Below are positions 5,877-48,274 of a DNA stretch of 48,502 bases, piece by piece (the stretch's first letter is position 1; each line of letters opens with the position of its first letter). The stretch lies in the IMG/VR virus record IMGVR_UViG_3300033145_000424, positions 1 through 48,502 of that record; one strand, 5' to 3'. Position numbers and translations under genes: made by a program. The notes below the pieces were generated by a model that saw only the letters and a program-made list of their open reading frames with translations, had not been told where the DNA came from and did not search any database. The stretch comes from a virus. Its lineage: Duplodnaviria; Caudoviricetes.

Positions 5877-6197
5877 ATGAGGCAAAAAAGACAGCTGCAT
5901 AACCTTGTTATGCCTACAGACCTAAAAGACCATCTCGTTGAGATTTTTTACCAGAGAGGCGACCCTGCTTTTACATGCGGCTCAATAGGTCATTGGTGTG
6001 TAGAGAATTTATGTGGTGTTGAAGCACAAATTAACGAAGGCATGGATGATGAAGACAAGACTGCTCTTTTTGAAGACGGCGATGGATCATATCTTTTTAG
6101 CATGAGTTTTGAGCCGCCAGATTACGAGCTAGGCGGTATAGGTGACGGCTATTGGTATTTCGAGAAAGTTAAATACAAGCCTGTGATTGAGGCATAA
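5877..6197 (+). CDS. Cassette hypothetical protein
   Basis: Bounded by GTTATGCCT/AGGCATAAC; stop is the TAA of the core site. Confidence 0.7.
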   Translation: MRQKRQLHNLVMPTDLKDHLVEIFYQRGDPAFTCGSIGHWCVENLCGVEAQINEGMDDEDKTALFEDGDGSYLFSMSFEPPDYELGGIGDGYWYFEKVKYKPVIEA

Positions 6198-6302
6198 CGC
6201 CCAAAATAACTGGGCGCGTGACCAAGTTTAAATAAGAACGCGGTGCTTTATACGCTCCACGTTGATTTTGATTGTTATATTTACCACTGAGGTATATTTG
6301 AA

Positions 6303-6530
6303 ATGACAGAGCCAATGCATGAGGACTACATTGCTGCTGGACTTAGAAATCAAACAGCACAAGAGCAGCAGGAATTTAATTTATTTTGCATGCTAAAGCC
6401 GACAGTTAAGAGAGATGGCAATCAATGGTGTGTGATTTATGGTGAAGATAAGACAGGTATTGCGGGATTTGGTGGCTCACTACACCTTGCAATTATGGAT
6501 TTCAACGCTCAATGGTACAAAGAAATATAA
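6303..6530 (+). CDS. Cassette hypothetical protein
   Basis: Bounded by GTTATATTT/AAATATAAC. Confidence 0.7.
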   Translation: MTEPMHEDYIAAGLRNQTAQEQQEFNLFCMLKPTVKRDGNQWCVIYGEDKTGIAGFGGSLHLAIMDFNAQWYKEI

Positions 6531-6642
6531 CGTTGCAAATAAGGTGGCACACTCGGTGCCAGAATAGAAACGAAAGACTAACCTGCTCAGCTTGATTTGC
6601 TTTGTTAGGCTATTTAGAACACTGGAAACTAGGAATTAAACA

Positions 6643-6969
6643 ATGAGCCATGCAACTGGAAAAGTGAGATTTAATGATGGAACAGTAATGTTCTATGAGT
6701 ATAACGGCACCTGTGATGTTGTGTGCAATTGCCTCTACGACTCTTATAAAGAGATGCATAGCAATTGGCGCGACCAACCCAGCAATGAGTGTACATGCGG
6801 CAACGATGAAGAGGTTGAAATTGCCACTAATTATGCAGATGGATACTACTGGCCAGGAAAAGCTTGCCGCAAATGTAAGGCCATTACGCGTGGACTAGGA
6901 AGCGCAGTAGATGAATACATTTATGACGAAGAAACAGAGGGATTACCTGACTGGTGGGCTGAAGCCTAA
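6643..6969 (+). CDS. Cassette Cys-rich hypothetical protein
   Basis: Bounded by GTTAGGCT/AGCCTAAC; YEYNGT and CxxC motifs. Confidence 0.7.
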   Translation: MSHATGKVRFNDGTVMFYEYNGTCDVVCNCLYDSYKEMHSNWRDQPSNECTCGNDEEVEIATNYADGYYWPGKACRKCKAITRGLGSAVDEYIYDEETEGLPDWWAEA

Positions 6970-7080
6970 CGTTGCAAATGAGATGCACCCCCACAAATGT
7001 ATAGATAACCGCTGCGCTTTGCAGTGTCAGATTAATTGCCGTTGTTATAACGCGCTAACTACAGACTATAGGTAACCGAC

Positions 7081-7803
7081 ATGAAAGACGAATTGATAAA
7101 CTCCATTAGCAAAATGATACCGTGCGGCAACCGATTGGAGTTGCCAAAGGAAGAGCATTTTGCTAACTACGCACAAGTTAAAAAAGCGCTCTTGACCGCA
7201 GGTGGCAAGTATAAGAAATGTGGGTTTGAATTTACTGAAGATGCTGGAGAGGTTCAGGCTCGATTAATTGGCGGCGAAGTAATTAATGACAAAAAGAAAT
7301 ATCAATTTTTCGCCACGCCTCCACAATTAGCAGAGCAACTGGTTGAGCTGGCAGGGATACAAGAAAACCATACATGCTTGGAACCATCCGCAGGACAAGG
7401 CGCTATTTCTGATTTGATGCTAGAAAAAGCTGGGAGCTGTACTGTTGTTGAGCTGATGCCAGAAAACATTAAGGCGCTTACGCGAAAAGGATATGCCCCG
7501 ATTGAGTGCGACTTCTTAGCTGAAACATTAGGCTCGTTCGATAGAATCGTTGCTAACCCACCATTTACAAAAAACCAAGACATTGACCATATTCGGCACA
7601 TGCATTCAATGCTAAAGCCTGGTGGAAAGTTGGTTAGTGTTGCAAGCAAAAGCTGGACGTTTGGCACCCAGAAGAAGCAAGTTGCTTTTAGAGAATGGCT
7701 TGATGAGATTGGGGCCACCGTTACAGATGTGCAAGCAGGTGCTTTTAAAGAGAGCGGGACTAATGTGGCCTCGGTTATCGTAGAAGCTAGCCGTGCGTTA
7801 TAA
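7081..7803 (+). CDS. SAM-dependent (probable N6-adenine DNA) methyltransferase, cassette-borne
   Basis: FFATP, LEPSAGQG (motif I), NPPF (motif IV), FKESGT. Confidence 0.85.
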   Translation: MKDELINSISKMIPCGNRLELPKEEHFANYAQVKKALLTAGGKYKKCGFEFTEDAGEVQARLIGGEVINDKKKYQFFATPPQLAEQLVELAGIQENHTCLEPSAGQGAISDLMLEKAGSCTVVELMPENIKALTRKGYAPIECDFLAETLGSFDRIVANPPFTKNQDIDHIRHMHSMLKPGGKLVSVASKSWTFGTQKKQVAFREWLDEIGATVTDVQAGAFKESGTNVASVIVEASRAL

Positions 7804-7851
7804 TGTTGCATATTCAGCTGACCGCGTGAACAGAAAACAGGACTAGACACC

Positions 7852-8106
7852 ATGAATGAGTTAACTAAAACCGATGAACTTGAAAAGCCCACCACAGCAG
7901 CGGGTCAGGCTGGAATTGCCTTGTTAGGCGACACCCACTACATGTGTGAAATGTGTGGGGAAATTAATGAAAGAGGATGGACAAAAGAAGAGTCACTGGC
8001 TGAGGCAAAATCCAACGGGTTTGACCCAGAGGAAAACCCAGATGATTACGGAATTGTTTGTGACGATTGTTACAAAAAGACTCCGTGGGGAATGGCTGAC
8101 GCCTAA
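7852..8106 (+). CDS. Cassette Zn-finger-like protein starting inside attC
   Basis: CEMC and CDDC; RBS and ATG lie in the attC loop. Confidence 0.6.
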   Translation: MNELTKTDELEKPTTAAGQAGIALLGDTHYMCEMCGEINERGWTKEESLAEAKSNGFDPEENPDDYGIVCDDCYKKTPWGMADA

Positions 8107-8206
8107 CGTTCAAAATCACCCGGCGCACTGGGTGCTTAAATAAAACCGCTAAAGTTGACCCGCTCGGGTGAATTTTGCTTGTTAGGTGTGATCGGAGAGG
8201 TGATAT

Positions 8207-8470
8207 ATGGGCATGAACAAGGCTGACATATTAGCAGACTGTATAAAAGATAGGCTAGGAAACCCTGAAAACGAGGAGGAATACTTAAAGGCGGCTTCCT
8301 GGGTTGATGAGTTGCATGCATTGGCTGACCCTCAAGCTGCCGAATTACGCAACCTTGAGGGGTTATTAACAGAGGCGCGTACCCTGCTGGAAATTTACAG
8401 TAATAACGATGTTCTTGGGTGCGGCGGTGAAGAGATGATTAAACAGATAAATAACCATTTTGACACCTAA
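8207..8470 (+). CDS. Cassette hypothetical protein
   Basis: Bounded by GTTAGGTGT/ACACCTAAC; GGAG/GAGG RBS. Confidence 0.7.
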   Translation: MGMNKADILADCIKDRLGNPENEEEYLKAASWVDELHALADPQAAELRNLEGLLTEARTLLEIYSNNDVLGCGGEEMIKQINNHFDT

Positions 8471-8500
8471 CAGTGATTAGGCAGCTGGGAGCTATATAAC
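8465..8500 (-). other. attI-like site, type 1
   Basis: Minus-strand GTTATATAGCTCCCAGCTGCCTAATCACTGTTAG, 34/34 identical to 45857-45890. Confidence 0.7.
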
Positions 8501-8514
8501 ACTCAGAGGGTGGA

Positions 8515-8727
8515 GTGAAATACAGCTCTCTGAGCAAAACTCTAGGATATTTTATGGCCAAGAAAGTAAACCAATCTGACCCATGGAATATAGGGTATCT
8601 AGTCGCGTCTATGGGGTTTAAGCGTGTGCCGTCTGTTATTCCTATTGGCGCGACTGAAAGTGAGTATAGGGAGCGCTGGTTGGCTGGGTATGATGCATTC
8701 CATGAGCGGGGTGGTAAAGCTCATTGA
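8515..8727 (+). CDS. Hypothetical protein
   Basis: ORF ending WLAGYD; followed by a terminator. Confidence 0.5.
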   Translation: MKYSSLSKTLGYFMAKKVNQSDPWNIGYLVASMGFKRVPSVIPIGATESEYRERWLAGYDAFHERGGKAH

Positions 8728-8742
8728 GATTATAGCATCCAC

Positions 8743-8783
8743 AAAAAAGCCGAGATCACTTGCGTGGTTTCGGCTTTTTCTTT
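8743..8783 (+). terminator. Intrinsic (possibly bidirectional) terminator
   Basis: AAAAAAGCCGAGATCAC-TTGC-GTGGTTTCGGCTTTTT. Confidence 0.7.
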
Positions 8784-8793
8784 ATGCTTATAT

Positions 8794-9191
8794 TTCAGTC
8801 GTTTTAAGTGGCCCTGCAAGGCCCGGCTGAAGAGGACAACAACGAAAGGAAATATAGCAATTAATTAGTGTTTGTTCAACACTGGCTTACCATAAGCAAT
8901 CGTTTATGGTCCTTTTGTCCTCATAACTTGCACGAGGACGGGCATACCAACAGACTCGTAAACCACGTGGCGTAGTACTTAGTGTTTACAACACACAATC
9001 TCAACCTTTAAGGGGCGGGGATAATTCCGGGTTAAAGTGGTGTATAGGGATTTACAACGATTTCCCTCTGGATCTTCTGTCTACCATAGCAGATAAGCAG
9101 AGGCCGGCAATACTGTAGATTGTGCTTACATGCGTTAAACGGTGGTCTTATTATCCATACCATATAAGGCTCCTTTATGTCAGGTATTGCC
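8794..9191 (+). ncRNA. Candidate large structured non-coding RNA or origin region
   Basis: About ten nested inverted repeats in an ORF-free ~400 nt. Confidence 0.4.
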
Positions 9192-9210
9192 TAAATAAAG
9201 AGGAAAGAAA

Positions 9211-9597: not shown

Positions 9598-9756
9598 ATG
9601 AAAGGCTTTACTTTACTAGAGCTGATGATAGTTATGGCAATACTTGGAATCCTTGCAGCTATCGCTTTGCCTGCATACCAAGAGCATGCCGCTAAACAAT
9701 ATACTGACGGCACATCACTTGAACAGCCTGATCATGAGGTCAATGGATTAAAATGA
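9598..9756 (+). CDS. Type IV pilin N-terminus-like peptide (52 aa), missing from ORF track
   Basis: MKG|[26 protein letters not shown]...; GGAG RBS; ATGA overlap with next gene. Confidence 0.85.
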
Positions 9757-10574
9757 AAAACCTACTCACAGCAACACTTATCATATCAATAGCGCTACTC
9801 AATACAGCATGTATTTCACCAAGTAATGTTGATGCTGGAGAAGAAGGTGTGTTGACTTACCAGCCATGGATATTTGGCCATGGTGGAGTTGATCAAGTGC
9901 CAGTAACCACAGGTTTAACATGGACAGTATGGAGTACCAGCGTTGAGCGCTATAACATAAAGCCCATGAAGGCTACAGAATCATTTGAAGATATTACAGC
10001 TTCCGACAATGTGGCAATTGATTTTAACTCATACTTAACCCTACAGATACACAAAGGAGAGTCACCAAAGCTACATGAGCTGAGCGGCGTTAAATGGTAC
10101 AGCAATAAGGTAAAGGATTACTACCGGACTGTTGTAAGGAATGAAGCGCGAACACGATCATCAATAGACCTTAGAACGAAACCTGAGATGATTAATGCAG
10201 CACAAGATAGCATACGCACCAAAATGGCTGAATACCTAAAGTCAATTGACCTGCCGGTGAGTGTAACTAAGGTGGTTATAGGGAAGGTGAACCCGCCTCA
10301 AGAGGTGCTTGATGAGGCAGAGCGTACAGCTGCACAAAAGCAGCGCAACGCAACTGAGAAGGCTAGAGCAAGTGCTGAGCTGGACAGGAAGCATGCAGAG
10401 ACAAATAAGGCGTTAGCAGACAAGGCCTATGCTACTGAATTTAAAATGAACACAGAGCAGTTTCTGAGAAATAAGCGGCTGGACATATTGCAGCTAGCGG
10501 TCTTGAAAAAAGGCGGAAACATATCCCTTATTTTGAATGCCTCGGATGCAACTCCGATATTTAATGCCAAATAA
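9753..10574 (+). CDS. SPFH/band 7 domain lipoprotein
   Basis: Lipobox-like NTAC; VDAGEEGV; coiled C-terminus. Confidence 0.8.
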
Positions 10575-10621: not shown

Positions 10622-11152
10622 ATGAACAAAAGAGACCTAATACAGCGCGTACTAATACGCACATGCCCGCCGGAGGACAAGATAGACGCGGGCATTGCGT
10701 ATGCTGAAACCCTCTGGGAAAAGCTCTGTGCTAGAGGGTATGGCGATGCTAAGTCAACAGGAAAGAGACAAACCATAGACCATTACGCGCTATTAACGCC
10801 ATTTCAAAAGAAGTATTTCGATAGGTTTTGGGTTTCATTTGGAAAGGTTGGATCAAGGAATGATGCGGCAAAAGCATGGAAGGCAAGAGATCCTAGCGCA
10901 GAGACCTCTGAGCGCATAATTGCCGCGGCATTAAAGGAAAGCTCAAGGGAGTAGTCAGGGAGCAGGAAACACGCAGAGGGATGGATTAACGGCTATAGAT
11001 ACGAGGATCTTTCCCCTGTTAAGTCTCAGCAATCAAGGTCAGCTGATGATGGTGGGCTAATGCATGCCAAGGATATGCTGGAGAAATCTAAAGGCAACCA
11101 AGCCATGATGGATTACTGGAAAGGCCAGATAAAGAAGATACAAGACAGTTAG
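10622..11152 (+). pseudogene. Replication-initiator/replisome-organiser C-terminal-like protein interrupted by in-frame TAG at 10952
   Basis: FDRFW...AAKAW before the stop; KHAEGWINGYRYED continues in frame after it. Confidence 0.5.
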
Positions 11153-11155
11153 AGA

Positions 11156-11587
11156 TACTAACGATTTAAATCACCTGTGGCGCTGGGTGATAGAAAAAGC
11201 GCTAATGAAGAATACATCTGGTGGATTTATTTTGTTAGCTGCTGGAGGCTATTGTGAGTAAAGAATACGGAATTGTTGCTAATGTTACTGGAATTGACCG
11301 CTTTGTGCGCCAAGGGTCGAAAGCATGGCTGTCTGGTGGCACAGGTGGCGAAGGGTGGTACAAGTTCCAATGGATATGCCGCACCAGGGGAGGAAGATTG
11401 ATAGAAAAATGGATGCCTACAGAAAGACTCAGTAACTTCAGATGCGCCTGGATACCAAAGCACATATGGGCACTGGCCGATGGGCATCTTTATATGACTG
11501 GTAGCAAGGTAGAAATGGAAAAAAGAGCTGCTGATCTAAACGAATTTCACAGCACTCTCAAGCGCAGCTAACAGGGGATAGACAGCT
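11156..11587 (-). mobile_element. Integron-like array B (single cassette)
   Basis: attC-like 11156-11240; cassette ends GTTAGCTGC/GCAGCTAAC; attI-like CTAACAGGGGATAGACAGCT at 11568-11587. Confidence 0.8.
11254..11571 (+). CDS. Cassette hypothetical protein
   Basis: GGAGG RBS, GTG start; stop is the TAA of the core site. Confidence 0.7.
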   Translation: MSKEYGIVANVTGIDRFVRQGSKAWLSGGTGGEGWYKFQWICRTRGGRLIEKWMPTERLSNFRCAWIPKHIWALADGHLYMTGSKVEMEKRAADLNEFHSTLKRS

Positions 11588-15136: not shown

Positions 15137-15496
15137 ATGAAAAGGCGTAATTTTTTGAAAGGGCTGGCGGCGTTACCTATTGCTGCCGCATTACCAGCTT
15201 TGGCAAACAAACAAGATGCTGACCAGGATGAGTATGCGGTAACCCAGTGGGAGAAAGAAGGGCAATTTCAAGACGCAAAGACATTAGAGCGCCTTCAGAT
15301 GGAAATACTGGAGAAGATAGCTAACCCTCCTCTTGTCCTGGGGCCAGAGATGACAGCAACTGAGGTGTTAAGGCGAAGAGACTTGTGTGGTTTTGAGGCA
15401 AGCCAGAGAATGCAGACACATCAAGGGCTGTGTAAGTACACTCAAAAGTTATTTGATGATGAAGTTTATAGGCTGCTGACTAATGCCGGCTCCTAA
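15137..15496 (+). CDS. Twin-arginine-signal-like small protein with portal-like motifs
   Basis: MKRRNFLKGLAALP; NPPLV and MTATEV. Confidence 0.55.
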   Translation: MKRRNFLKGLAALPIAAALPALANKQDADQDEYAVTQWEKEGQFQDAKTLERLQMEILEKIANPPLVLGPEMTATEVLRRRDLCGFEASQRMQTHQGLCKYTQKLFDDEVYRLLTNAGS

Positions 15497-15950
15497 AGGA
15501 AATAAGTTCGCAGAAGGAAACGACGGAGGCCGGCCAACCAAATACACTCCAGAATTCATAGAGCTAGCTAAAGATTATCTTGAGAATTATGAGGAAAAGT
15601 ATGATGACGCAATCCCATCAATAGCAGGGCTTGCAGTGGCATCTAGCATCTCAAGAGAAACGCTAAATGTATGGAAAAGCGAGGAAGGGAAAGAAGAGTA
15701 TTCGGACATATTAGCTAAGTTATTGGCTACACAGGAAAATGTCCTGGTTAATAAGGGGCTAAAGAATGAGTTTAATTCCAATATTACCAAGCTGGTATTA
15801 GGGAAGCATGGGCACCATGAAAAGCACGATAATACTCACGGCGGGCCTAATGGCAAACCAATCGAAGTAGAAGACAAAACCAAATACGAGGGAAACGAGC
15901 TAGCCAGAAGGCTGGCTTTTGTGCTTTCTAAAGCGGTGAAAGATGAGTGA
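15483..15950 (+). CDS. terS: Terminase small subunit
   Basis: MPAPKGNKFA, GRPTKY, PSIAGLA, ITKLVL. Confidence 0.85.
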   Translation: MPAPKGNKFAEGNDGGRPTKYTPEFIELAKDYLENYEEKYDDAIPSIAGLAVASSISRETLNVWKSEEGKEEYSDILAKLLATQENVLVNKGLKNEFNSNITKLVLGKHGHHEKHDNTHGGPNGKPIEVEDKTKYEGNELARRLAFVLSKAVKDE

Positions 15951-16112: not shown

Positions 16113-16221
16113 GGCATAACGATTAGTTGAGAAGCGTGGTGCACGACAATGATTAAGTGCACCGCTACTGAAAACCACGTCTTTTCGAACGGCGTGTTAT
16201 GCAGAACCCCATACTACGGAG

Positions 16222-16458
16222 TTGATAATGATTAAATACTATTGCGATATTTGCGGCACCGAAATTACACCAGAGAACAAGAAGCCTGCGACATTTACAG
16301 GCAAAAAAGTAAGCACCCACGGCTTGCCAAAAAGAGAGCTGATGGTGCAGCTTGTTGAACATGACCCATGTGGCGACGAGGATGCATGTGTTTGCAAGTA
16401 TTGCATGATAGATGCAATTAAGAGCGCAGATGATCGCCCTATGGAAGGTGCTGCATAA
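16222..16458 (+). CDS. Cassette Zn-ribbon-like protein
   Basis: YCDICG and CKYC; cassette ends GTTATGCAG/CTGCATAAC. Confidence 0.65.
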   Translation: MIMIKYYCDICGTEITPENKKPATFTGKKVSTHGLPKRELMVQLVEHDPCGDEDACVCKYCMIDAIKSADDRPMEGAA

Positions 16459-16570
16459 CAGTTGCGAATAAGGTGGCACACTCGGTGCCAAAATAGAAAC
16501 GAAAGACTAACCTGCTCAGCTTGATTTGCCTGGTTAGGCGATTACTACCACTGAAGACTAGGAGTTAAAA

Positions 16571-16768
16571 ATGAGCGACTTTACAGCAAGAATGTTTGAA
16601 GAACATAGCCAGCTATCTACAAGAATTGAGAAGCTGAAGGCTTTTATTGTTTCTGATAAATACGACACGTTGCCAGAAGTTGATCAGGCTGATTTAAAAA
16701 AACAGCTGAAGCACATGGAAGGCTATTTTAAGGTATTAAGTTGCCGCGTTTCTCGTCAGTGTGGGTGA
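16571..16768 (+). CDS. crAss001_48-like small phage protein
   Basis: RM.EE..L..RI.KL..FI...Q..LK.Q...M..Y..L..R pattern. Confidence 0.6.
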   Translation: MSDFTARMFEEHSQLSTRIEKLKAFIVSDKYDTLPEVDQADLKKQLKHMEGYFKVLSCRVSRQCG

Positions 16769-16946
16769 AGAAATGAATATTGAATTATTACTTGTGATTA
16801 TGGCTTGGATGGTGGCGACCTCTATTGTGTTTCGTATCAGAGATGTATGCAACTCTGACTGCCAATATGAATTTTTGAGAGCCACATGGGAGCCTTACGC
16901 AATATCCATCGGGCTACTGATGATGGCAATAGGGCATTACGCCTAA
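16761..16946 (+). CDS. Small two-TM membrane protein (second ORF of the cassette)
   Basis: Hydrophobic segments; stop in the core site. Confidence 0.55.
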   Translation: MGEEMNIELLLVIMAWMVATSIVFRIRDVCNSDCQYEFLRATWEPYAISIGLLMMAIGHYA

Positions 16947-17019
16947 CGACCGCAATTAACCGGCACGAGTGAAGCGAGTGTCGGGTTGAATTGCCGTGTT
17001 AGGCCAAGCTTTATTTTAC

Positions 17020-17048
17020 TTGACCTGACCGATAAGTAAGACTAGATT
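17020..17048 (+). promoter_or_regulatory. Cassette-internal sigma70 promoter
   Basis: TTGACC-17-TAGATT. Confidence 0.6.
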
Positions 17049-17061
17049 TGAAACTGTGGAG

Positions 17062-17156
17062 TGATACCCACTACAAGTGAGTTAAACAAGGCGTACGTCT
17101 TGGCTAGGTGGGATCTCACTCCCCCGTATCAACTGGCCAGGGTGTACGCCTTTTTT
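17062..17156 (+). ncRNA. c4-like antisense RNA module 3 (cassette-borne)
   Basis: Stem AAGGCGTAC/GTACGCCTT plus U-tract; internal CTCACT and GTATCA complement upstream AGTGAG and TGATAC. Confidence 0.65.
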
Positions 17157-17170
17157 ATTGGGATAGGATT

Positions 17171-17383
17171 ATGCTAAATGTTAACAAACAAAAAGGGCAA
17201 ATTGACGGCGAGCTTATTGGGATTCTTATCGGGCTGGCGCTCTTTGTGGCCAGTGTTGCCGCTTGGTTTACCCATATTTTTACTTGCCTCTCTGAAGAAG
17301 CTTGGGGTTTCCTCATTGCTGGCGCGATTATGTTCCCGATTGCGATAGTTCACGGCTTTGGCATATGGTTTGGTTTCTTCTGA
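17171..17383 (+). CDS. Membrane protein with prepilin-like leader
   Basis: MLNVNKQKG|QIDGE followed by hydrophobic helices. Confidence 0.65.
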   Translation: MLNVNKQKGQIDGELIGILIGLALFVASVAAWFTHIFTCLSEEAWGFLIAGAIMFPIAIVHGFGIWFGFF

Positions 17384-17518
17384 AGTGAAGGCCGCACAGA
17401 TAGTAGATTGTGCGGCCTAATGTGGGCAATAAGTTGCAGCCCACCTAGATTGAACAAACCGCAGCGACCTCGCTGTCAATTTGATTGCCCTTGTTAGACG
17501 GCGAGAACGGAGAAACTA

Positions 17519-17770
17519 ATGTTTGCAAAACTATATGAAACAGAAATTGGACAGATTCTAGTTAAGAGAGATGAGGGGGATGATGGGCCAGAGATGAGGC
17601 TTTTCTTTAAACCGGAAAAGTTAGGTGTGTGTTCATTTGCTTTTTCATACTCAGATGATGATGAAGGTTGGGATAAGCTGGACAAAGCATTTGACGACAT
17701 GAATGAAAAAGATGCCACAGAGATGACAAAAAACATCTTTAGTAACGTTACTCAGAAGACTTTTGAATAA
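17519..17770 (+). CDS. Cassette hypothetical protein
   Basis: GGAG RBS; between attC sites. Confidence 0.7.
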   Translation: MFAKLYETEIGQILVKRDEGDDGPEMRLFFKPEKLGVCSFAFSYSDDDEGWDKLDKAFDDMNEKDATEMTKNIFSNVTQKTFE

Positions 17771-17891
17771 GAGCCGCCTAACGTGAAAATAACCTGGCAC
17801 GTATAGATGACTGGGCAAAACGCGGTGACGGAATGCTCAGGTTGATTTTGCTTGTTAGGCGATTTGATGAACCGAAAACTAGGAGATTAAA

Positions 17892-18323
17892 ATGGGAATG
17901 GTATTTACTGTTGATGAGATTAAACACTATCTTGGTGGCCACAAAACTATAGAGGCCGCTATTGATAACATAAGTGGGCAAGCTATTGCTTCATGTATCC
18001 CTATTACAAATGTTGACAGCCTGAACTTCAAGAAAAACGATGCCAATTTAGAGAAATATGAAACGATGATTGGTATGAGCAAACAAAAGAGCTATCAGCG
18101 CACCTTGCACCAGAAAAGCGGAGGCAAAGAAGGGCGGAAATGGATGGCGTTATCCCCAAAATGGATTGATGGCCATAAGCTAGAAACAGAGTTTGAGATT
18201 GCATATTGGGTAAATTATGGGGATGACAATACCTACGGTTGGTTTTCTGTTGAGCAGATTCAACAATGGTTTGCCAACCCTGGAATACAGCTACACGAGC
18301 TTGGTGGCAGAAAAGAACGGTAG
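17892..18323 (+). CDS. Cassette hypothetical protein
   Basis: AGGAG RBS; between attC sites. Confidence 0.7.
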   Translation: MGMVFTVDEIKHYLGGHKTIEAAIDNISGQAIASCIPITNVDSLNFKKNDANLEKYETMIGMSKQKSYQRTLHQKSGGKEGRKWMALSPKWIDGHKLETEFEIAYWVNYGDDNTYGWFSVEQIQQWFANPGIQLHELGGRKER

Positions 18324-18414
18324 AAGCCTAATGTGGCGCTTAACCTGCGCGAGCGCAGCGAGTGTCAGCGTTGAAGCGCATTGTTAGGCCGAACCTACAC
18401 AGGACTATAAAACT

Positions 18415-19131
18415 ATGACAACAAGACTATTACAAGGCGATTGCCTAGAACGCATGAAAGAGATAGAAAGCGGCACCGTTGATATGGTGCTGGCTGACCC
18501 GCCTTACGGCACTACATCGTGCAAATGGGATAGCGTGATACCGCTGGAACCAATGTGGGAACAGCTAAAAAGGGTGGTTAAGCCCAATGGTGCTATCGTA
18601 ATGACGGCAAGCCAACCATTTACCACTACACTGATAAGCAGTAATTTGAAGATGTTTAAATATTGCTGGGTATGGGAGAAGAGCAAGGCAACAGGGCATG
18701 CGCTATGCAAAAAAAGACCGATGAAGGCGCATGAGGATATAGCTATATTTTGCGGCGGTGCGGAACCATACGAGCCACAAATGACGGAAGGCAAAGCCTA
18801 TAAGTCAAAGCTAGGGAGAAAGGAAAGCACGGAGTTCAGCACGGGAAAAGAGCGGAATGATAACACTGGCTATAGATACCCAAGGAGCGTGCAATATTTC
18901 AAAACCAGCGAGTCAGAGCGAAACACCCACCGGCACCCAACACAGAAGCCATTACCACTAATGGAATACCTGATCAGAACTTACACGGACGAGTGTGAAA
19001 CGGTGCTAGATTTCACAATGGGAAGCGGAACTACGGGCGTAGCCTGCAAGAATCTAAACCGACACTTTATTGGAATAGAACTCGATGAAGCATACTTTAA
19101 GATTGCACAGGATAGGATTAGTGCGGCCTAA
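18415..19131 (+). CDS. N4/N6 DNA methyltransferase (beta class), cassette-borne
   Basis: DPPY, HPTQKP, DFTMGSGTT. Confidence 0.92.
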   Translation: MTTRLLQGDCLERMKEIESGTVDMVLADPPYGTTSCKWDSVIPLEPMWEQLKRVVKPNGAIVMTASQPFTTTLISSNLKMFKYCWVWEKSKATGHALCKKRPMKAHEDIAIFCGGAEPYEPQMTEGKAYKSKLGRKESTEFSTGKERNDNTGYRYPRSVQYFKTSESERNTHRHPTQKPLPLMEYLIRTYTDECETVLDFTMGSGTTGVACKNLNRHFIGIELDEAYFKIAQDRISAA

Positions 19132-19175
19132 CGATTGAGTTAACCAGCTTGCGGGAATTAAAGGAGTATGCCAAA

Positions 19176-19436
19176 ATGAAACACAGTAGTGGATGCAGCG
19201 AATTTTTGGATGAAAAGCACCACTGTAGCAAGTCTGCGTTGGACGACTTGTTAGTTGTTTACTCGGTGCTTATTTGTGACTGCATATTTGAATCGAGCTT
19301 TGCAACCGTTAGCTTACACCGCACTAAGCGCGGAGCAGTAAAGGCGATGAACAGGCTTAAAAAAGAATACTTTTACGATTACCCTTTTTATGACTACATG
19401 CGCCTGAGATACGGCAAGCAAGAAATAGGAGAGTGA
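19176..19436 (+). CDS. Cassette hypothetical protein starting inside attC
   Basis: AAGGAG and ATG within the attC loop. Confidence 0.55.
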   Translation: MKHSSGCSEFLDEKHHCSKSALDDLLVVYSVLICDCIFESSFATVSLHRTKRGAVKAMNRLKKEYFYDYPFYDYMRLRYGKQEIGE

Positions 19437-19651
19437 ATATGGAAACATTAGGCGACCGGCTTAGAGTGTATAGAACTAAAGCAGGACTTACGCAGGATAA
19501 ATTAGGTGAATTATCTGGCTCTAACCAGGCATGTATTCAGAAGATAGAAAACGGACGCTCTGAGAACCCACGCTGCCTTAGGGATATTAGCAAAGTGCTT
19601 GGTGTGCGCCCAGGGTGGCTGCATTATGGTGAAGGTGAGGCAGACAACTAA
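19433..19651 (+). CDS. XRE/Cro-family HTH regulator, cassette-borne
   Basis: LGDRLRVYR..AGLTQDKL...IQKIENG...LGVRPGWL. Confidence 0.88.
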   Translation: MNMETLGDRLRVYRTKAGLTQDKLGELSGSNQACIQKIENGRSENPRCLRDISKVLGVRPGWLHYGEGEADN

Positions 19652-19737
19652 CAGGGGATAGACAGCTATGTGCTATCTATTTCCACCCATGCAACATGAA
19701 ATGCAGCACATCGCCGTCTAATCACAATTAGGAAATT

Positions 19738-38708: not shown

Positions 38709-38872
38709 TGTTTCCCTCTGGGCATTTTCCGCTAGGGCACTTTGCAGTGGGCCACTTTCCACCGGTGCCGCTCGTATGGAAATCGGTCTTTGGGGAAAAG
38801 AGGCAGAAGGAAGAAGAGGAAATTCTATTACTTATGATTCAGGCAGCGTTTCAAAATGGGTTCATTAAATAA
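38708..38872 (+). CDS. 54-aa protein with (GHF)x3 repeat, missing from ORF track
   Basis: MFPSGHFPLGHFAVGHFPP...EEEEILLLM; GGAGG RBS; TAATG coupling. Confidence 0.6.
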   Translation: MFPSGHFPLGHFAVGHFPPVPLVWKSVFGEKRQKEEEEILLLMIQAAFQNGFIK

Positions 38873-41800
38873 ATGCATTCTTGGTGTTCCGGTAGCCGCT
38901 GAGGATAAGGCGGAGCTGAGAGCGCGCACAGCCGATCTGATTTCCCAGGGTGAAGACGCTATTGAGGCAAGCGAGATGGCTGCGCAGGAGCTGTTTGGCG
39001 AGGCAGAATCACAGGCTAATGAGGTTCAGAGGCAACTGGATGAGCAGGCGCCAGTGTTGGAGCAGAGAGGTGTTGAGCTTGATGATTTGAAACGCACAAT
39101 ATTCAGAATGCCAGGCGTTGACATGTTTGATGTCAAACCTGACTCAGCAGGTAATGTTGTGTTAGAAGGGGTTAAAGTTCGCAAAGATGAGCGTGGGGAA
39201 GGCCTGGGTACTGGTGCTGTTAATGCGCTGTTAGACTGGGCTGACGCCAATGGGAAAACTGTCACGCTTACTCCTAGCAACTCACTTGGTGGATCAGTGA
39301 GGCGGTTGAAAAAGTTTTATAAGCGCTTTGGTTTTGTCGAGAATAAGGGGCGAAATAAAGACTTTGAAATTAGCGATTCAATGTATCGTGAGCCTGATGC
39401 ACTACTACAACAAAAAGAAGAAATAGTAGGCGGCAGAATAACCCTGCAAGCCCCCTATGAAATAACCCTTACTGAAAACTCAGATATGACAACCTTCATT
39501 CACGAAACATCGCATTTATTTATGTTGATGGAGCGTGACTTTGCCGAAGAGTACGGCATAACTGAAGATCAAAAGACACTCCTGAAGTATCTTGGCGCTG
39601 AGTCATTCGATGATATGGATGTTGTAAAGCACGGTGATCCAGCCAGAGATAGGCATGAGAAATTTGCTGATGCGTTCCTGTCCTACATCAAAACAGGCAA
39701 AGCGCCTAGCCGCAGTTTAGCCCAAGCATTCGCCTCATTCCGCAATTGGATTATGGAGGCATACCGAAGATTCACAGCTCAAGAGATCGAAGTAAGCCAA
39801 GAGGTCAGGGATGTATTTGACCGCATGCTGGCTACTGATGCTGAAATAGAGCAGATGAAAGTAGATGGTATTTATACCCAGTTCTTCCAGTCTGCTGAGC
39901 AAGCAGGCATGACTACTGCAGAGTTCAAAGAATACCAAGCTAGGGTTGATGCCAGAGAGAACAAAGCAGCCTCCACACTAGATGAGAAGCTGATTGCTGA
40001 GCTAACTCGCAAGCATGAGAAAGAGTGGAAAGCTGAAAAGAGAAAGTACGCAACCGAAGAAGAGGAAAGATTAAGAGAAAAGCCAGTATATCTGGCTGAA
40101 CAGATGATGCGCGAAGCGCCAGTAGACCGCGCAACAGTTAAGCAGCTCCTGAAGATCGACAAGATCCCTCCAAGACTCAGGGGCTTAACGAAAGAGGGGG
40201 GCGGTGATTTAGAAAGTGTGGCGCTGGAACAGGGATTCGCCTCCTCTCAACAGATGATCACTTTGGTTGCCGCCTCACTCCCCATATCAAAGAAGGCAGA
40301 AGAGAATGCAGAGTCATACATGCTGTCTACCCATGGGGATATTCTGAATGATGGCACGATAGAGCGTGAAGCTATCGAAGCATCTCAGAATGAAGAGAAT
40401 GCAAAGGCTCTTCTGATAGAGCTTAGGGCGCTGAATAGACAGAATGGAAAGCCATCTACTACAAACCTGGCGGTGGTCAGACTGCAGGCTGAAGCGCTAG
40501 TAGCTACCATGCCATATTCCGAGATCAGGCCTAACAAATATTATAGAGCAGAGGTGAAGTCTGCTAAAGAAGCACAGGCTGCGTTGGATGATGGCGATAC
40601 TCTGCTGGCTGAAGATCGAAAGGCTAAGCAGATTACTAACCAGTATCTGTATAAAGCTGCTAAAGATGCCAAGGAAAGCATGGATAAGCAGCGTAATTAC
40701 CTGCGCAGAACACAGGTTAAGGCTACTGCTGGCAAATACTCACCTAAGGACGTTGCGCCAGAGCATGTGGGTTACTTGGCAATGCTTACGGCCGCGTATG
40801 ATTTTAGGAAAAGCAAAGCAGCTGAAGACAAGGCAAGAGCTGAGCTATTCAGCATCGCCCAGTGGATCAATGCACAGGCTGGTGATTTAACCATTCCGCA
40901 ATGGCTGGATCCTAATCTTTCCATGATGAATGCAATTCTCTCCATTGAGGAGCTAAGCCAAGAAGAGAAGATGGCTCGGGTCAACGCATTAAGGATTAAG
41001 CCTTATTCAGAAATGACCGGCGAAGAGATGCAGGGCGTCTATGATATGGCGAGGAATATTCGCTGGGTCGGCGGGCAGCTATCTGAAAATGCCAACGCTG
41101 AATTTAAGGCGATGGCCGAGAAGGTAGGTGCCAACATTAAGGAGAAGGGGAAAGGGGATGGAATAGAAGCGAGGGAGTCTACTGTCTGGACTAGAAATCT
41201 ATCCATGATGAAGTCATTTGGCGCAGATCAGATTGCTTTTGCTAATACCGTCGCTGAGCTGGACGGGTACGAAGAATTTGGCCCGATGTTTGAGAATTTC
41301 TATCAGGACATAATTGATTCAACAAATACAGAGATTAAAGCCCGCAGAGGGGACGCAGAGAAGCTGAACAACCTTCTCAATGGCTTTGGATGGGCTGAGC
41401 TAATAGAGGGCAGAGGCAGGCTTTCTGTTCCTGTAAGCAGAACAGCAATAGACCCCATCTCCGGCGAGATGGTAGAAAAGAAAAAGATCACTGGTGCAGG
41501 TATTAGAGATGGAGTGTGGACTACGTCACGCAGGGCCAGGATCATGCTTGCTCTGTATTGGGGTTCGCCAGAAGGGCAGCAGGCTGTATTAGATGGATTT
41601 CAACTATCTGAATCTGAAGTTCAGTCTATGTTGAACATGATGACAGATAAAGAACTGGATCTGGTCGAGGCGCTATGGAAGTTGAATGAAGAACATTGGC
41701 CTGGGGTAAGCAAAACAGCCAAGGCGATGACCGGCGTTTCGCCTCCAAAAGTAGAGCATGTGCCGTTCCAGGTTAATGGGCGCAAGCTACCGGGAGGGTA

Positions 41801-43211
41801 CACAAGGTTATTTTATAACTATTCATCACAGGACAGCCTGAGACAAGTCGTTGATAATGTTAAAGAAACTCGTTCAGGATCAGGAATACTAAGCAATACT
41901 AAACACGGGGCGAGACATGAGCGTGTAGGCTCAGGTGGAAAGCCAGTAAATCTAGATTTCAATATGTACTTCCAGGCAATGGAGGAGGTTAACCATGACG
42001 TTGCTTTTGCTCAAACATCGAAGAGCGGATTTAGACTTCTTCAAAGCAAGCCAGTAAGAGAGGCGATTGTTGAAAAATACGGCAGAGAAAGATATGAATC
42101 TTTAATCGCTGCAATGAATGGCGTTGTTGCTGGCAAGGCAGATTCAGCTAGTGGCTGGATTAACACCCCGGCTAGGTATCTAAGAACCAATGCCACCTAT
42201 TCATTGCTGGGCCTGTCTATCCGTAATTTTGTTCAACAGCCTGTGGCCTTGACCAATGGCATGGGTAAAGTAGGCGAGGTTGAAGTAATTAGTGGGATGG
42301 TTGAGTTTTACCGAAACCCTGCAAAGATGATTGGATTTGTAAAAGAAAATTCCCAGTTCATGCAGGACAGAACCAACATAATGAACCGGGATATTGCCGA
42401 GGTATCCACCAAGTTAAATAAAGCTGGCGTGCTTGGGTCAATGCAGCATCATGCTTTTGATCTGGCAACTATTGGTGATTCAATGGTTGCTTATCCCATA
42501 TGGATTGCGGCTTATCGAAAAGGGCAGAAGAGGCATTATAGCAACAAGAAATCAGCAGTTTATGCAGATGAGATAGTTGCTGCTACTATTGGGTCTGGGC
42601 TAATGAAGGATCTCTCTCCTATAATGATGGGCAAGGTATCAAGCCAACCGCATCAAGGGCAGGCTGAGATAGTTAAGCTCATCACGTTTATGGGGTCGTT
42701 CTTCAACAAAACCGGGAATCTAGTTAGAGATGCCGTAAAGACAGCTGATTTTAAGTCTGTCGGAGGCGTTACTAAGGTAACTAGAGAAATGACTTGGTAT
42801 GTCGTTGCCCCTGCTGTTCTATCGGCGCTTGTCGTGGGTGAGCTGCCAGATGATGATGATGACGAAGGGTGGGTGGAGTTCGCTGCCACAAAGAGTGCTG
42901 AATACAGTCTAAGCATGGTCTTTTTGCTGAGAGACTTGGTGGCCTTGGCAAAAGGATTTAGCTCATCAAGCCCGTATCAAAGAGCAATGTCTGATGCTAA
43001 AAACGCTGCTGTTGATCTTTATAAGGTGTCTGAGGGCGAAAAAGAGTTAGATGACAAAACGGCAGTAAGGATATTGCGCGGAACCGCTGGGTTGTTCCCC
43101 ATACCAGGAGCAGGGCAAGTTGCCAGAACAGTTAATTATAGTTATCACTACCAAGAGGAAGGTGACTATAATCTTTATCACGCTTTAGTAAGGGGCAAGA
43201 AGAGAGATTAA
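38856..43211 (+). CDS. Large polyvalent internal virion protein (GNAT and zincin-like motifs)
   Basis: RGEGLGT...LKKFYKRFGF (GNAT); TFIHETSH (HExxH); 1451 aa. Confidence 0.7.
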   Translation: MGSLNKCILGVPVAAEDKAELRARTADLISQGEDAIEASEMAAQELFGEAESQANEVQRQLDEQAPVLEQRGVELDDLKRTIFRMPGVDMFDVKPDSAGNVVLEGVKVRKDERGEGLGTGAVNALLDWADANGKTVTLTPSNSLGGSVRRLKKFYKRFGFVENKGRNKDFEISDSMYREPDALLQQKEEIVGGRITLQAPYEITLTENSDMTTFIHETSHLFMLMERDFAEEYGITEDQKTLLKYLGAESFDDMDVVKHGDPARDRHEKFADAFLSYIKTGKAPSRSLAQAFASFRNWIMEAYRRFTAQEIEVSQEVRDVFDRMLATDAEIEQMKVDGIYTQFFQSAEQAGMTTAEFKEYQARVDARENKAASTLDEKLIAELTRKHEKEWKAEKRKYATEEEERLREKPVYLAEQMMREAPVDRATVKQLLKIDKIPPRLRGLTKEGGGDLESVALEQGFASSQQMITLVAASLPISKKAEENAESYMLSTHGDILNDGTIEREAIEASQNEENAKALLIELRALNRQNGKPSTTNLAVVRLQAEALVATMPYSEIRPNKYYRAEVKSAKEAQAALDDGDTLLAEDRKAKQITNQYLYKAAKDAKESMDKQRNYLRRTQVKATAGKYSPKDVAPEHVGYLAMLTAAYDFRKSKAAEDKARAELFSIAQWINAQAGDLTIPQWLDPNLSMMNAILSIEELSQEEKMARVNALRIKPYSEMTGEEMQGVYDMARNIRWVGGQLSENANAEFKAMAEKVGANIKEKGKGDGIEARESTVWTRNLSMMKSFGADQIAFANTVAELDGYEEFGPMFENFYQDIIDSTNTEIKARRGDAEKLNNLLNGFGWAELIEGRGRLSVPVSRTAIDPISGEMVEKKKITGAGIRDGVWTTSRRARIMLALYWGSPEGQQAVLDGFQLSESEVQSMLNMMTDKELDLVEALWKLNEEHWPGVSKTAKAMTGVSPPKVEHVPFQVNGRKLPGGYTRLFYNYSSQDSLRQVVDNVKETRSGSGILSNTKHGARHERVGSGGKPVNLDFNMYFQAMEEVNHDVAFAQTSKSGFRLLQSKPVREAIVEKYGRERYESLIAAMNGVVAGKADSASGWINTPARYLRTNATYSLLGLSIRNFVQQPVALTNGMGKVGEVEVISGMVEFYRNPAKMIGFVKENSQFMQDRTNIMNRDIAEVSTKLNKAGVLGSMQHHAFDLATIGDSMVAYPIWIAAYRKGQKRHYSNKKSAVYADEIVAATIGSGLMKDLSPIMMGKVSSQPHQGQAEIVKLITFMGSFFNKTGNLVRDAVKTADFKSVGGVTKVTREMTWYVVAPAVLSALVVGELPDDDDDEGWVEFAATKSAEYSLSMVFLLRDLVALAKGFSSSSPYQRAMSDAKNAAVDLYKVSEGEKELDDKTAVRILRGTAGLFPIPGAGQVARTVNYSYHYQEEGDYNLYHALVRGKKRD

Positions 43212-45374: not shown

Positions 45375-45449
45375 ATAAGTTTCCTGCTAAATCAATACCC
45401 ACCCACATTTGGCTCGTCAAATATCAGCAGCATGAGCACAATCAGAAAC

Positions 45450-45734
45450 CTACTTGGGATCATATTCCGCATGTGCAGCTCCATGATTCGACTTCAGGAC
45501 ATCCCAGTCATCACCTAATGCAGCTTCGATTTCCAGAATCTCGACTTCCAGTTGCCTGAAGTCAAAAGCCAATCCTATCTCATGAAAATTACCTGGAGAA
45601 TGATTGCCTTCACCCTGGCTGGTTATGTAAAGATCAAGCCCGTGTTTAGCATATAGCTTGGCTACTCTTCCTTTGCCCTTCTGCGCTATTGGCTTCAGCT
45701 CACCCATTACGCCTGCTTTATACCAAATGGTCAT
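45450..45734 (-). CDS. Peptidase M15-like putative endolysin
   Basis: ITS..EG.H...FHEIGLAFDFR...HAEYDPK Zn-ligand pattern. Confidence 0.6.
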   Translation of the reverse strand: MTIWYKAGVMGELKPIAQKGKGRVAKLYAKHGLDLYITSQGEGNHSPGNFHEIGLAFDFRQLEVEILEIEAALGDDWDVLKSNHGAAHAEYDPK

Positions 45735-45886
45735 AGTTCATCCCCAGGAATCTTCATATGTTTAATTATGCCCTCTTTTTGGCATTGTTCAAGTTTGAGC
45801 TGTATTTGCATAGTTTTTGGCCTCCTCAATAGCTGTATTTCTCCCACCCCTTCGGAGTTATATAGCTCCCAGCTGCCTAATCACTG

Positions 45887-46081
45887 TTAGCCTTCAAGGT
45901 GAGCCGCATGGCAGGCTGTAATCTCGCTTACATTAATCATCAGCCCTGGCTCAACGTAAAAGTGATTTAAGGCGGTTGGGTCTTTCATCGCTCCATCAAG
46001 CATATCCTGCACAAACTTGTCTTTATCGGTGACATTGATGGTCATTTTATGTCCGTTTTTAAAACTAATCGTGTATTCCAT
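45887..46081 (-). CDS. Cassette hypothetical protein
   Basis: Cassette ends GTTAGCCTTC/GAAGGCTAAC. Confidence 0.7.
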   Translation of the reverse strand: MEYTISFKNGHKMTINVTDKDKFVQDMLDGAMKDPTALNHFYVEPGLMINVSEITACHAAHLEG

Positions 46082-46176
46082 AGCTCACCCCAGAAGGCTA
46101 ACAACGTAAATCAACGCGGAGCATTTCATCATTAGCGTTTTGTTTGGGCACCGAACGTGCCCGGTTATTTACAACA

Positions 46177-46584
46177 TTATGCCTCAAATCCGTACCTCTC
46201 ATTAAGGCGCTTGTCATATCGCGCTTTCGCCTCCTTATCTCCTTCAAAAGTTCCAGCATAGAAATCATTGAATTCCTCAATGGTCATGTTCTCCTTATTC
46301 CATTCCCATGATACAAGTCGATGCCCTACGCGATCTTCCATTAACGTTCTCAGCTGGCTTCTTCTGCCTCCCGTCTTGTAATCTTGCGTCTCATGGCTTT
46401 TGTCTTCATTGGGGAGTTCTTCAGGCCACTCCCATTTATTTAGCATGCAAGCCCATTGGGCTAGCGTTACATCATCTTGATTATTAATCACCTCAAGATC
46501 TTCAGGCATAACAAGGCAATTTAACGCCGACCCACTACTGTGGCGCTTGGGTTCACTTTCTGTGGTTTCGTTCGATTTAGTCAT
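46177..46584 (-). CDS. Cassette hypothetical protein starting inside attC
   Basis: AAGGAG and ATG in the attC loop. Confidence 0.65.
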   Translation of the reverse strand: MTKSNETTESEPKRHSSGSALNCLVMPEDLEVINNQDDVTLAQWACMLNKWEWPEELPNEDKSHETQDYKTGGRRSQLRTLMEDRVGHRLVSWEWNKENMTIEEFNDFYAGTFEGDKEAKARYDKRLNERYGFEA

Positions 46585-46632
46585 GGTATTCAGCTCCTTG
46601 TTTATCTGCCCGTGGTCGGGTTAATTGCAACG

Positions 46633-46923
46633 TTAGGCGGCATACAATTTCTGCACGAATGCCCGCCGTTTCTGCTTTGCTCTTTGGGTGGCTGATACTC
46701 TTTCTTGCACCCGCTTAATACAATTCTGCATACCTGCCTGCATGGGTAAAATCTTAACCTCTGCCCACGTTCTGAATATGTCGTACCACTTCCACCATTT
46801 CGGAACCTCAAGCGCCCACTCATACTCATACTCATACCGATATGGATGATCAACTAGGGTTACACAATAGCTCTCGTATGCTCTGGTGCTGATTGAATCA
46901 TAATAAGGGTAATTCACAAACAT
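46633..46923 (-). CDS. Cassette hypothetical protein
   Basis: ATG at 46923; AGGAGG RBS overlaps the core site. Confidence 0.6.
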   Translation of the reverse strand: MFVNYPYYDSISTRAYESYCVTLVDHPYRYEYEYEWALEVPKWWKWYDIFRTWAEVKILPMQAGMQNCIKRVQERVSATQRAKQKRRAFVQKLYAA

Positions 46924-47009
46924 CCTGCCTCCTAACAACGGCAATTAATCTGACACTGAAATTTCAGCGCCTTTTTAGGTATCTGTGGTGGTGCAGCTTA
47001 TTGCCCACA

Positions 47010-47315
47010 TTAGCCTTCTACCGTTTTCTTGATATCGGCTATTCTCTTCTTTAAATAGATAATCTCGCTTTGCTGTTCAGCAAATAGCTGCACTTTATCT
47101 CTATCCAGAAATGTCAGGATGTCGGTTATCTCAACCCCCATTATCTGAAGTTTCTTTTTAACGTCCAGCAATGCTTTGGTTTCCATGCCGAATATCATTT
47201 CAATATCATCTGCACTGGGTCTGTTCATGGTTGCTCTCTCAGGTTTCGTGCAAATACTGCACTGTTGGCGAAACTTTAGATGCTCGCAAATAACATCTGG
47301 TCTTCCTGGCCTCAT
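47010..47315 (-). CDS. Cassette hypothetical protein
   Basis: GAGG RBS; stop in the core site. Confidence 0.65.
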   Translation of the reverse strand: MRPGRPDVICEHLKFRQQCSICTKPERATMNRPSADDIEMIFGMETKALLDVKKKLQIMGVEITDILTFLDRDKVQLFAEQQSEIIYLKKRIADIKKTVEG

Positions 47316-47420
47316 ACATCACCTCTCCGCTCACGGCTAACAAGTAAAATCTAGCTGACGGCCTAAGCTTTGGCACTTTTAATCACTACCCAGTGCCGCA
47401 CCTAATTTTCACATTATGCT

Positions 47421-47906
47421 TCAAAACGGTACGCCGTTGTTCTTATCCGAATAGGTGATAAGGTCACGTAGTTCTCCTATTTCGCGCTCATACATTGATC
47501 TAATTGCCTTTTCTTTTTTGCTTGCAGGGCGCTCACCAATGCTGGCTTCGTATTGACCGCTCAGCTCTACTGAATTATCAAGAGCGTCTTTCATCGCGGC
47601 GTTCATTCGCCACCAAGCGCTCTGCTTAACCAACTGAACCACCTCGCCACCATCCTCGGTTACAGCAGCTAATACATCTCCAGCGAAAGCAATTAGGACT
47701 TTTTCCCAGTCATCCCATTCGCCAAAGTCACCCTCAAGGTTGTTAGAGGCGTTCGTGCCTTCACCATAGGCGGCCTCTTTGCATTTATAAATCCTGCTTT
47801 TTGCCATCTCGCTAACAGTAGGCAGGCCAAGCATAACAAGCGCATCAACCTGATTCGCTACTGTGGTGCTTGATTCAATTTTGTCACTCTTCATGTCCAT
47901 GTCCAT
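47421..47906 (-). CDS. Cassette hypothetical protein starting inside attC
   Basis: AAGGA and ATG in the attC loop. Confidence 0.6.
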   Translation of the reverse strand: MDMDMKSDKIESSTTVANQVDALVMLGLPTVSEMAKSRIYKCKEAAYGEGTNASNNLEGDFGEWDDWEKVLIAFAGDVLAAVTEDGGEVVQLVKQSAWWRMNAAMKDALDNSVELSGQYEASIGERPASKKEKAIRSMYEREIGELRDLITYSDKNNGVPF

Positions 47907-47959
47907 GTCTTTTCCTTAAATATCAGCTGTTTAAACCCGCTCTCAGGTTATGCTTGTCG

Positions 47960-48154
47960 TTATAACGCTGAGTCATTTATATAAAAATCATCAGCCGTGA
48001 AATACTCATTCTGCGCCAGCCGCCATTCTTCGGCCTCTTTGCGCGTGTCGAATGAGGTTATCAAGTGCTCGTGACCTTCGTCTTCCATTAGCACTGCTTT
48101 CCGGATTACTTGAAAGCGTTTTGTTTCATCTAAGTTCTTCCAGCTAGTATCCAT
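47960..48154 (-). CDS. Cassette hypothetical protein
   Basis: Cassette ends GTTATAACGC/GCGTTATAAC; likely start MDTSW. Confidence 0.6.
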   Translation of the reverse strand: MDTSWKNLDETKRFQVIRKAVLMEDEGHEHLITSFDTRKEAEEWRLAQNEYFTADDFYINDSAL

Positions 48155-48274
48155 AATGCACCCCGCGTTATAACAAAATAAATCCACCAGACTGCTCCAA
48201 CATTAGCGCCTTTATTTAACCACCCAGCGCAGCAGGTGATTTACAACGTTATCGGAATTGCCAATTCCTTCTTC

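Follow-up and report, generated by a model that had tools for sequence, protein, structure and literature searches.

Background

Clusters of attC sites lacking integron-integrases (CALINs) are already known from phages: Qi et al. 2023 (PMC9892861) reported 17 of them, and five of the six sites tested recombined with the integrase IntI1, on the bottom strand. In the same report the attC of phage PH101 is IntI1-active, and PH101 is called typical in structure. The sequence analysed in this work, IMG/VR virus record IMGVR_UViG_3300033145_000424, positions 1 to 48,502 ("the window", 48,502 bp), is a complete 48.5-kb podovirus-like phage, carrying four arrays of gene cassettes separated by attC hairpins. 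The arrays are an integron-type cassette system, not a complete integron, and represent a variant of the published phage CALINs, with four attI-type platforms and a mirror polarity. Neither reversed phage cassettes nor phages with several attI platforms are reported in the full-text literature searched, in which subscription journals are thinly covered.

attC hairpins and cassettes

Nineteen attC hairpins are found in the window, 5, 1, 7 and 6 of them in arrays 1, 2, 3 and 4, respectively (Table 1), all at the places given in a preliminary description, made from the sequence alone. They contain the inverted R''/R' and L''/L' boxes of attC sites and a single extrahelical base on the bottom strand, read from the alignment as G in 15 sites and A in 4; the spacing between this bulge and the R box (GTT) is 9 nt in 16 of the 19. 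A structural detector, based on paired R and L boxes and one bulge, gave 14 matches in the window, 12 within the arrays and 2 outside, while the mean of 20 shuffles was 0.5. When 29 sites were aligned (the 19 of the window and 10 from two metagenome contigs, L008 and L022), 86.9% of the cells were found to pair, and 12 of the 19 pairs showed two-sided changes. The covariation score of this alignment was reached by none of 500 shuffles and lay above all slid controls; the structure used in the test was set by hand from the same aligned sequences. Mean column identity across the attC sites is 39%, with compensatory changes. Chance structures, terminators and c4 RNA were considered as alternative identities of the hairpins, and rejected.

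The two ends of a cassette, facing each other across its gene, are complementary, as expected of a core and an inverse core in a circular form. A perfect match over 6 nt is present in 17 of 19 cases across the gene, and in only 4 of 19 within the integrated hairpins; in 20,000 permutations the match was found in 3.6 of 19 on average, with a maximum of 10. The perfect run, counted from TAA/TTA, has a mean length of 7.4 nt and a range of 4-9. This complementarity, already noted in the preliminary description, is the pattern predicted for cassettes built by recombination. The stop of the last gene falls on the R-box TAA in 16 of 20 units, and four long attC (131-135 bp) each enclose the start of the next ORF (open reading frame). 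The similarity between attC sites is weakly correlated with that of their flanks (rho 0.13 downstream and 0.00 upstream, from 406 non-independent pairs). For the near copies at 6525-6610 and 16453-16539 homology extends downstream (0.73), not upstream (0.37).

All together the cassettes account for 8,872 of 48,502 bp, or 18% of the genome, which falls short of the "much of the accessory genome" first attributed to the arrays. As for their cargo, two methyltransferases, a helix-turn-helix (HTH) regulator and a crAss001_48-like gene were correctly recognized, whereas the proposed c4 antisense RNA had no Rfam c4 match up to an E value of 10.

No integrase gene stands beside the arrays, in a record that spans the entire virus, has direct terminal repeats and is rated 100% complete. 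PF00589 and TIGR02249 gave no tyrosine recombinase candidates in the window. An unfiltered six-frame search (--max) with a profile of 20 IntI proteins had a best E value of 0.91 in the window and of 1.5e-128 for a control Vibrio IntI; the initial impression of a missing recombinase is upheld. Arrays 1, 3 and 4 are CALINs, having at least two clustered attC and no intI nearby; array 2 has one attC.

Polarity of the cassettes

All 19 cassettes of the window are coded on the bottom, recombining strand of the attC, and their genes are read towards attI; there are no ORFs on the attC top strand reading from attI, in the Pc-type arrangement of a complete integron. A cassette is made up of an attC and the gene behind it, which move together. 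By a crude count, in which only the position of the longer ORF is considered, the bottom strand is coding in 19 of 19 window cassettes versus 0 of 22 in two arrays of the gammaproteobacterial genome G335, where 7 of the 22 cassettes are a tandem duplication. The same count assigns the longer ORF to the bottom strand in 4 of 5 cassettes of L022 and 3 of 5 of L008. In the sense of the gene, the extrahelical base belongs to the right arm in the window but to the left one in the controls (Vibrio, Shewanella and TJE1).

A model built on the phage coding strand from 29 training sites, called R1, was used to scan 35 sources. In known integrons it matched 12 of 12 control attC, always on the strand opposite the array genes, and it matched nothing else beyond the training sites. 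The phage coding strand is laid out like the bottom strand printed for attC aadA7 in Table S3 of PMC9892861. Among published virulent-type arrays, PH101 and ctTUS972 have reversed attC and TJE1 is canonical, that is, two of the three orientable ones are reversed; R1 had no matches in P12002L, H188 and phage 3/49. ORFs antisense to attC polarity are not mentioned in the text of PMC9892861, as far as accessible, although its figures and Dryad annotations may show orientation.

Array ends and bacterial integrons

All four arrays end gene-distally in TAAC-N6-TAG[GA]C-AGCT. A looser motif, TAAC-N6-TRGRC, occurs four times in the window, always at array ends, while 1.2 occurrences are expected anywhere, and 5 of 100 shuffles reach four. 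Upstream of intI, this class of motif is found on the expected strand in 4 of 20 gammaproteobacterial loci and on the other strand in 1, with 0.12 expected; none of 5000 shuffles reach four. At the level of sequence, the four array ends thus qualify as putative attI sites, matching intI-linked sites of bacteria. The same end site closes the reversed arrays of L008 and L022 and that of L165, a viral contig in which a helicase-like ORF follows the end site and the attC resemble those of the window. The AGCT extension is common to the window and L008/L022, and is reduced to AGC in L165. Scanning viral contigs for the attI motif gave no matches; attC pattern scans of viral contigs gave 11, none supported by R1, and another scan gave none.

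Among 80 Gammaproteobacteria chosen by SSB score, R1 finds attC in 25. The array of G335 extends as far as intI (TIGR02249, 472 bits), its end being TAAC AGTGAG TAGAC. A second attI copy in the same genome (L061:3190), devoid of intI, heads a canonical array of four cassettes, and provides a precedent for action in trans; G035 also repeats attI elsewhere without intI (L064:4088). IntI is present in 12 of 17 genomes of the family of G335, and intI-linked hosts use the same 9-nt attC class as the phage. For 18 of 19 phage attC, the sites of this host group are closer than Vibrio or Shewanella sites, a comparison biased in that direction, since the host sites were picked with R1. The arms of attC 6525-6610 match one chromosomal attC of G335 at 39 of 48 bases. 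The SSB of the window reaches 78% identity at most among the chromosomal SSBs of 400 Gammaproteobacteria, the sole class searched, and is a pointer to the class of the host, not to the host. As a separate observation, a region of G015 (L057-L059, C1 2244000-2304000) contains several short cassette arrays beside short intI-like ORF fragments, and no full IntI was found in G015 at an E value of 1e-40.

Exchange of cassettes in related elements

Two IMG/VR phages, L095 and L097, encode methyltransferases 59-60% identical to the product of 7081-7803. They share only 862 bp, at 88% identity, which begin at the left crossover, include the preceding attC, the leader and the methyltransferase gene, and stop at the final TAA. 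The shared cassette lies in a nin-like region in one phage, and after ssb in the other, where it is trailed by further cassettes. Among 56 homologue loci, the cassette form was seen in only L095, L096 (identical to L095) and L097; closer homologues of 7081-7803, in L092 and L093 (70-71%), show no cassette ends. The same methyltransferase family is both an ordinary phage gene and a cassette, which bears on how cassettes are born. R1 found no sites in 57 cargo-homologue loci, a partly false negative, as the attC of L095, L096 and L097 are visible by eye and by end complementarity. A lone reversed cassette without an attI-like end is inserted at L095:3860-4740, a secondary site flanked by two genes of the nin region. 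In L091, at 4434-4565, a divergent attC-like hairpin with the same reversed sense follows a homologue (56%) of cargo 17892-18323.

Two stretches are common to the metagenome contigs L008 and L022, one cassette and the 177 bp (99% identity) that extend outwards from the array end. The contigs diverge right after TAAC at both points, which places the exchange exactly at the TAA|C crossover. A 1.7-kb reversed cassette of L008 (946-2623), whose ends match over 9 nt, combines two genes for HNH endonucleases with a tRNA cluster, in which ARAGORN predicts five genes (Pro, Leu, Tyr, Leu, Ser).

Proposed mechanism and alternatives

It is likely that a host IntI acts in trans on live arrays. Four integrase-less platforms, each made of an attI-type site and a row of attC, would be worked by the chromosomal IntI of a marine gammaproteobacterial host. 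The enzyme would bind the folded coding strand and excise circles by attC x attC recombination, and these could be inserted at the attI site or at a secondary site. Promoters of upstream phage operons may read through the array towards attI, so that the newest cassette would be the most promoter-distal. The reversed polarity would keep phage and host cassette pools apart in expression, because a host cassette captured by a phage array would be antisense there, as would a phage cassette in a host array. It may also expose the recombining strand, either as lagging-strand template or as the strand displaced in transcription. According to Loot et al. 2017 (PMC5371416), attC bottom strands fold and recombine more on the lagging-strand template, an orientation avoided by 25 of 30 chromosomal integrons. 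Excision would be favoured by the reversed polarity if phage genes are oriented with the replication fork. The integron-like reading of the preliminary description is retained as far as attC, attI-like ends, the missing integrase and a host IntI in trans, as best explanation, are concerned; it had overlooked the reversed polarity, and its c4 label is unsupported.

Several results weigh against this mechanism. Single-strand folding of the attC is mostly unremarkable, with z < -3 in only 4 of 19 (four sites were entered 1-2 nt off). No clear promoter signal emerged, promoter-like sites being 20 versus 26.5 in shuffles. The strict motif is absent from 16 of 20 intI-upstream regions, and the bacterial attI sites are called from position. 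No host emerged from the search for the full motif with AGCT, which was found in no bacterial integron: there is one chance match in genome_contigs, in a cluster resembling those for non-ribosomal peptide synthetases, and none in 17 genomes at one mismatch. Metagenome matches to the motif are accompanied by arrays in 2 of 16 cases, and those of a relaxed viral scan in 1 of 8. L008 and L022 are short contigs, whose phage origin is deduced only from cargo (the tRNA cluster, HNH and PHROG matches). Finally, the comparison of cassettes among relatives, suggested at the outset, revealed cassette-precise exchange in L095/L097 and L008/L022, but no close relative of the window phage was found, and shuffling is seen in related elements, not in the window genome. 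A portal search for sister phages gave 2 distant loci (43-49%), with no attC; in a blastn search of array 3 against GenBank phages the best 20 of 228 matches fall on methyltransferase genes, and single attC queries against phages and plasmids gave nothing useful.

Mobile cassettes could also be moved by another enzyme, an IntI-like or short Xer-type recombinase encoded by a co-infecting phage or prophage. The AGCT extension of the phage end motif, not found in the bacterial genomes searched, would fit such an enzyme. The alternative is unlikely, as chromosomal integrons with a full IntI have matching attC arms and a matching end-site core, and PF00589 has no match in any of five records with reversed arrays (G422, which is 21% complete, G423, G424, PH101 and ctTUS972).

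The arrays might otherwise be fossils, built once by IntI and now fixed, with the hairpins, four long ones of which hold a start codon, retained as leader or spacer sequences. The collapsed site at 5897-5913, the replacement of TAAC by TAAT in 6 of 19 attC and the weak folding would agree with such decay; neither variants nor circles of the window genome came to light, no sequencing run being listed for it. Cassette ends are still perfectly complementary in 17 of 19, however, four end sites are intact, two of them as 54-nt near copies, and the flanks of L008 and L022 are 99% identical, yet whole cassettes differ; a fossil state is accordingly held to be improbable.

Least probable is that the hairpins serve as repeated boundaries for module swaps by homologous recombination genes of the phage (the YqaJ exonuclease, at 1108-1818, and the adjoining 193-aa gene): a YqaJ-type exonuclease and SSB are indeed encoded, and some attC are near copies (0.91 identity), but the aligned sites show compensatory changes and a mean column identity of only 39%, L008/L022 and L095/L097 have their breakpoints at the AAC crossover, where few bases are shared, and homologous exchange does not predict complementarity across genes.

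Host IntI in trans remains the preferred explanation, and a wider proposal may be built on it, for and against which the chances seem evenly divided: phages that infect integron-rich marine bacteria would have domesticated host attI and attC into a multi-platform system of mirror polarity, hijacking host IntI, possibly induced by SOS during infection, in order to reshuffle and trade accessory genes among unrelated phages, while the orientation keeps the phage pool and the defence-rich host pool mutually silent. SOS control of intI, and induction of SOS by infection with double-stranded DNA phages, are described in PMC8946536; anti-phage defence genes are reportedly stored in chromosomal integrons (bioRxiv 10.1101/2024.07.02.601686). 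The integron is regarded as a device of bacteria. If the proposal is true, a phage turns a host enzyme into a tool of phage evolution, and phage mosaicism has a site-specific route, by which methyltransferases, regulators and the tRNA cluster of L008 move as units.

Gene content of the window

The virion genes have a podovirus-like layout, and include terS, terL, a head-tail connector, a major head protein, tail proteins and internal virion proteins. Non-virion genes include a YqaJ exonuclease (1108-1818), SSB and Cro-like regulators; the Atlas gave no name for the 193-aa gene adjoining the exonuclease. PADLOC, run on 22 cargo proteins, gave only methyltransferase and HTH matches, plus one weak LmuB match. 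Arrays, sites and cargo are listed in Table 1.

One cassette contains, at 17020-17160, a promoter-like site, a long hairpin and two boxes complementary to each other, with no corresponding Rfam family. The terL product, of 655 aa versus 518 aa in L002, contains a stretch starting with Cys after the first GG motif, with no Pfam match, which presumably resembles an intein start. The ORF at 10622-11153 is interrupted by one in-frame TAG (10952-10954), and array 2 begins directly after its end; with no family match, its product is assumed to be of the replication-initiator C-terminal type. Accessory genes are also present outside cassettes, as a pilin-type N-methylation ORF (52 aa) overlaps an SPFH/Band 7 gene at 9598-10574. 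Large virion-type proteins, encoded in 32957-35449 and 38856-43211, contain LPD22 and ART-PolyVal domains and a GNAT domain.

Table 1. Coordinates of arrays, recombination sites, cargo and neighbouring genes in the window, and of published phage CALINs with the same orientation
Feature	Positions	Strand	Remarks
Array 1	5897-8486	+	six reversed cassettes, including methyltransferase 7081-7803; rightward operon after Cro-like gene; ends at attI-like site A
Collapsed attC (20th site)	5897-5913	+	two R boxes 3 nt apart; heads first cassette (ORF 5877-6197)
attC	6192-6280	+	bottom strand is + strand; extrahelical G; 9-nt spacing
attC	6525-6610	+	near copy of 16453-16539
attC	6964-7050	+	precedes methyltransferase cassette
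DNA methyltransferase cargo	7081-7803	+	reversed-cassette homologues in L095/L097 (59-60% identity)
Long attC	7798-7929	+	encloses start of ORF 7852-8106
attC	8101-8187	+	
attI-like simple site, type A	8465-8486	+	TAAC AGTGAT TAGGC AGCT; read on its bottom strand
Array 2, single attC	11156-11240	+	cassette ORF 11254-11571
attI-like simple site, type B	11566-11587	+	TAAC AGGGGA TAGAC AGCT
Terminase small subunit (terS)	15483-15950	+	left neighbour of array 3
Array 3	16114-19667	+	seven reversed cassettes between terS and terL; attC at 16114, 16453, 16941, 17415, 17776, 18326, 19126
Two-gene cassette	16571-16946	+	crAss001_48-like gene and 61-aa ORF
Cassette	17020-17383	+	promoter-like site 17020-17048, long RNA hairpin 17082-17158, phrog_7319 membrane-like ORF
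N6/N4 DNA methyltransferase cargo	18415-19131	+	
attI-proximal cassette	19149-19651	+	ORF starting inside attC 19126-19256, plus Cro/CI-like HTH
attI-like simple site, type B	19646-19667	+	70 bp before terL
Terminase large subunit (terL)	19738-21705	+	right neighbour of array 3
Array 4	45871-48254	-	six reversed cassettes; attC 48168-48254, 47831-47965, 47335-47419, 46930-47015, 46506-46638, 46096-46182
attI-like simple site, type A	45871-45892	-	54-nt near copy of array 1 end
Published phage CALINs, attC antisense to canonical polarity	KR534323 (PH101) ~75900-78000; MW202573 ~2070-3740		

Comparison with known systems

Class 1 and Vibrio integrons (IntI1/attI1/attC aadA7; the V. anguillarum array, MK672802) have in common with the phage the R and L boxes, the extrahelical G and the crossover G|TT. 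They differ by their canonical polarity, by the presence of intI beside attI and by a bulge that, in the controls, is 8 nt from the R box, as against 9 nt for 16 of the 19 phage attC. Expression in class 1 and Vibrio integrons follows the logic of the Pc promoter. This logic, also given in a figure legend of PMC8946536, cannot apply as such to the phage arrays.

Sedentary integrons in the chromosomes of marine Gammaproteobacteria (G335, G035, G404, G405, G414) resemble the window in attC type, with 9 nt between bulge and GTT and shared arm sequence, in the geometry of the attI core, in the complementarity of cassette ends and in having extra attI copies without intI. Unlike the window, they encode IntI, and it is the top strand that carries their ORFs (all 22 in G335), which are read away from attI.

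The phage CALINs of Qi et al. 2023 (PMC9892861) share with the window the clusters of attC without intI in phage genomes, as well as methyltransferase cassettes. Most of those listed in Table S1 of that report have 2-4 attC, whereas the window has 19, in four arrays; and attI, described there, in the parts accessible, only in a Shewanella prophage and in class 1 integrons, has a counterpart in the attI-like end present on every array of the window.

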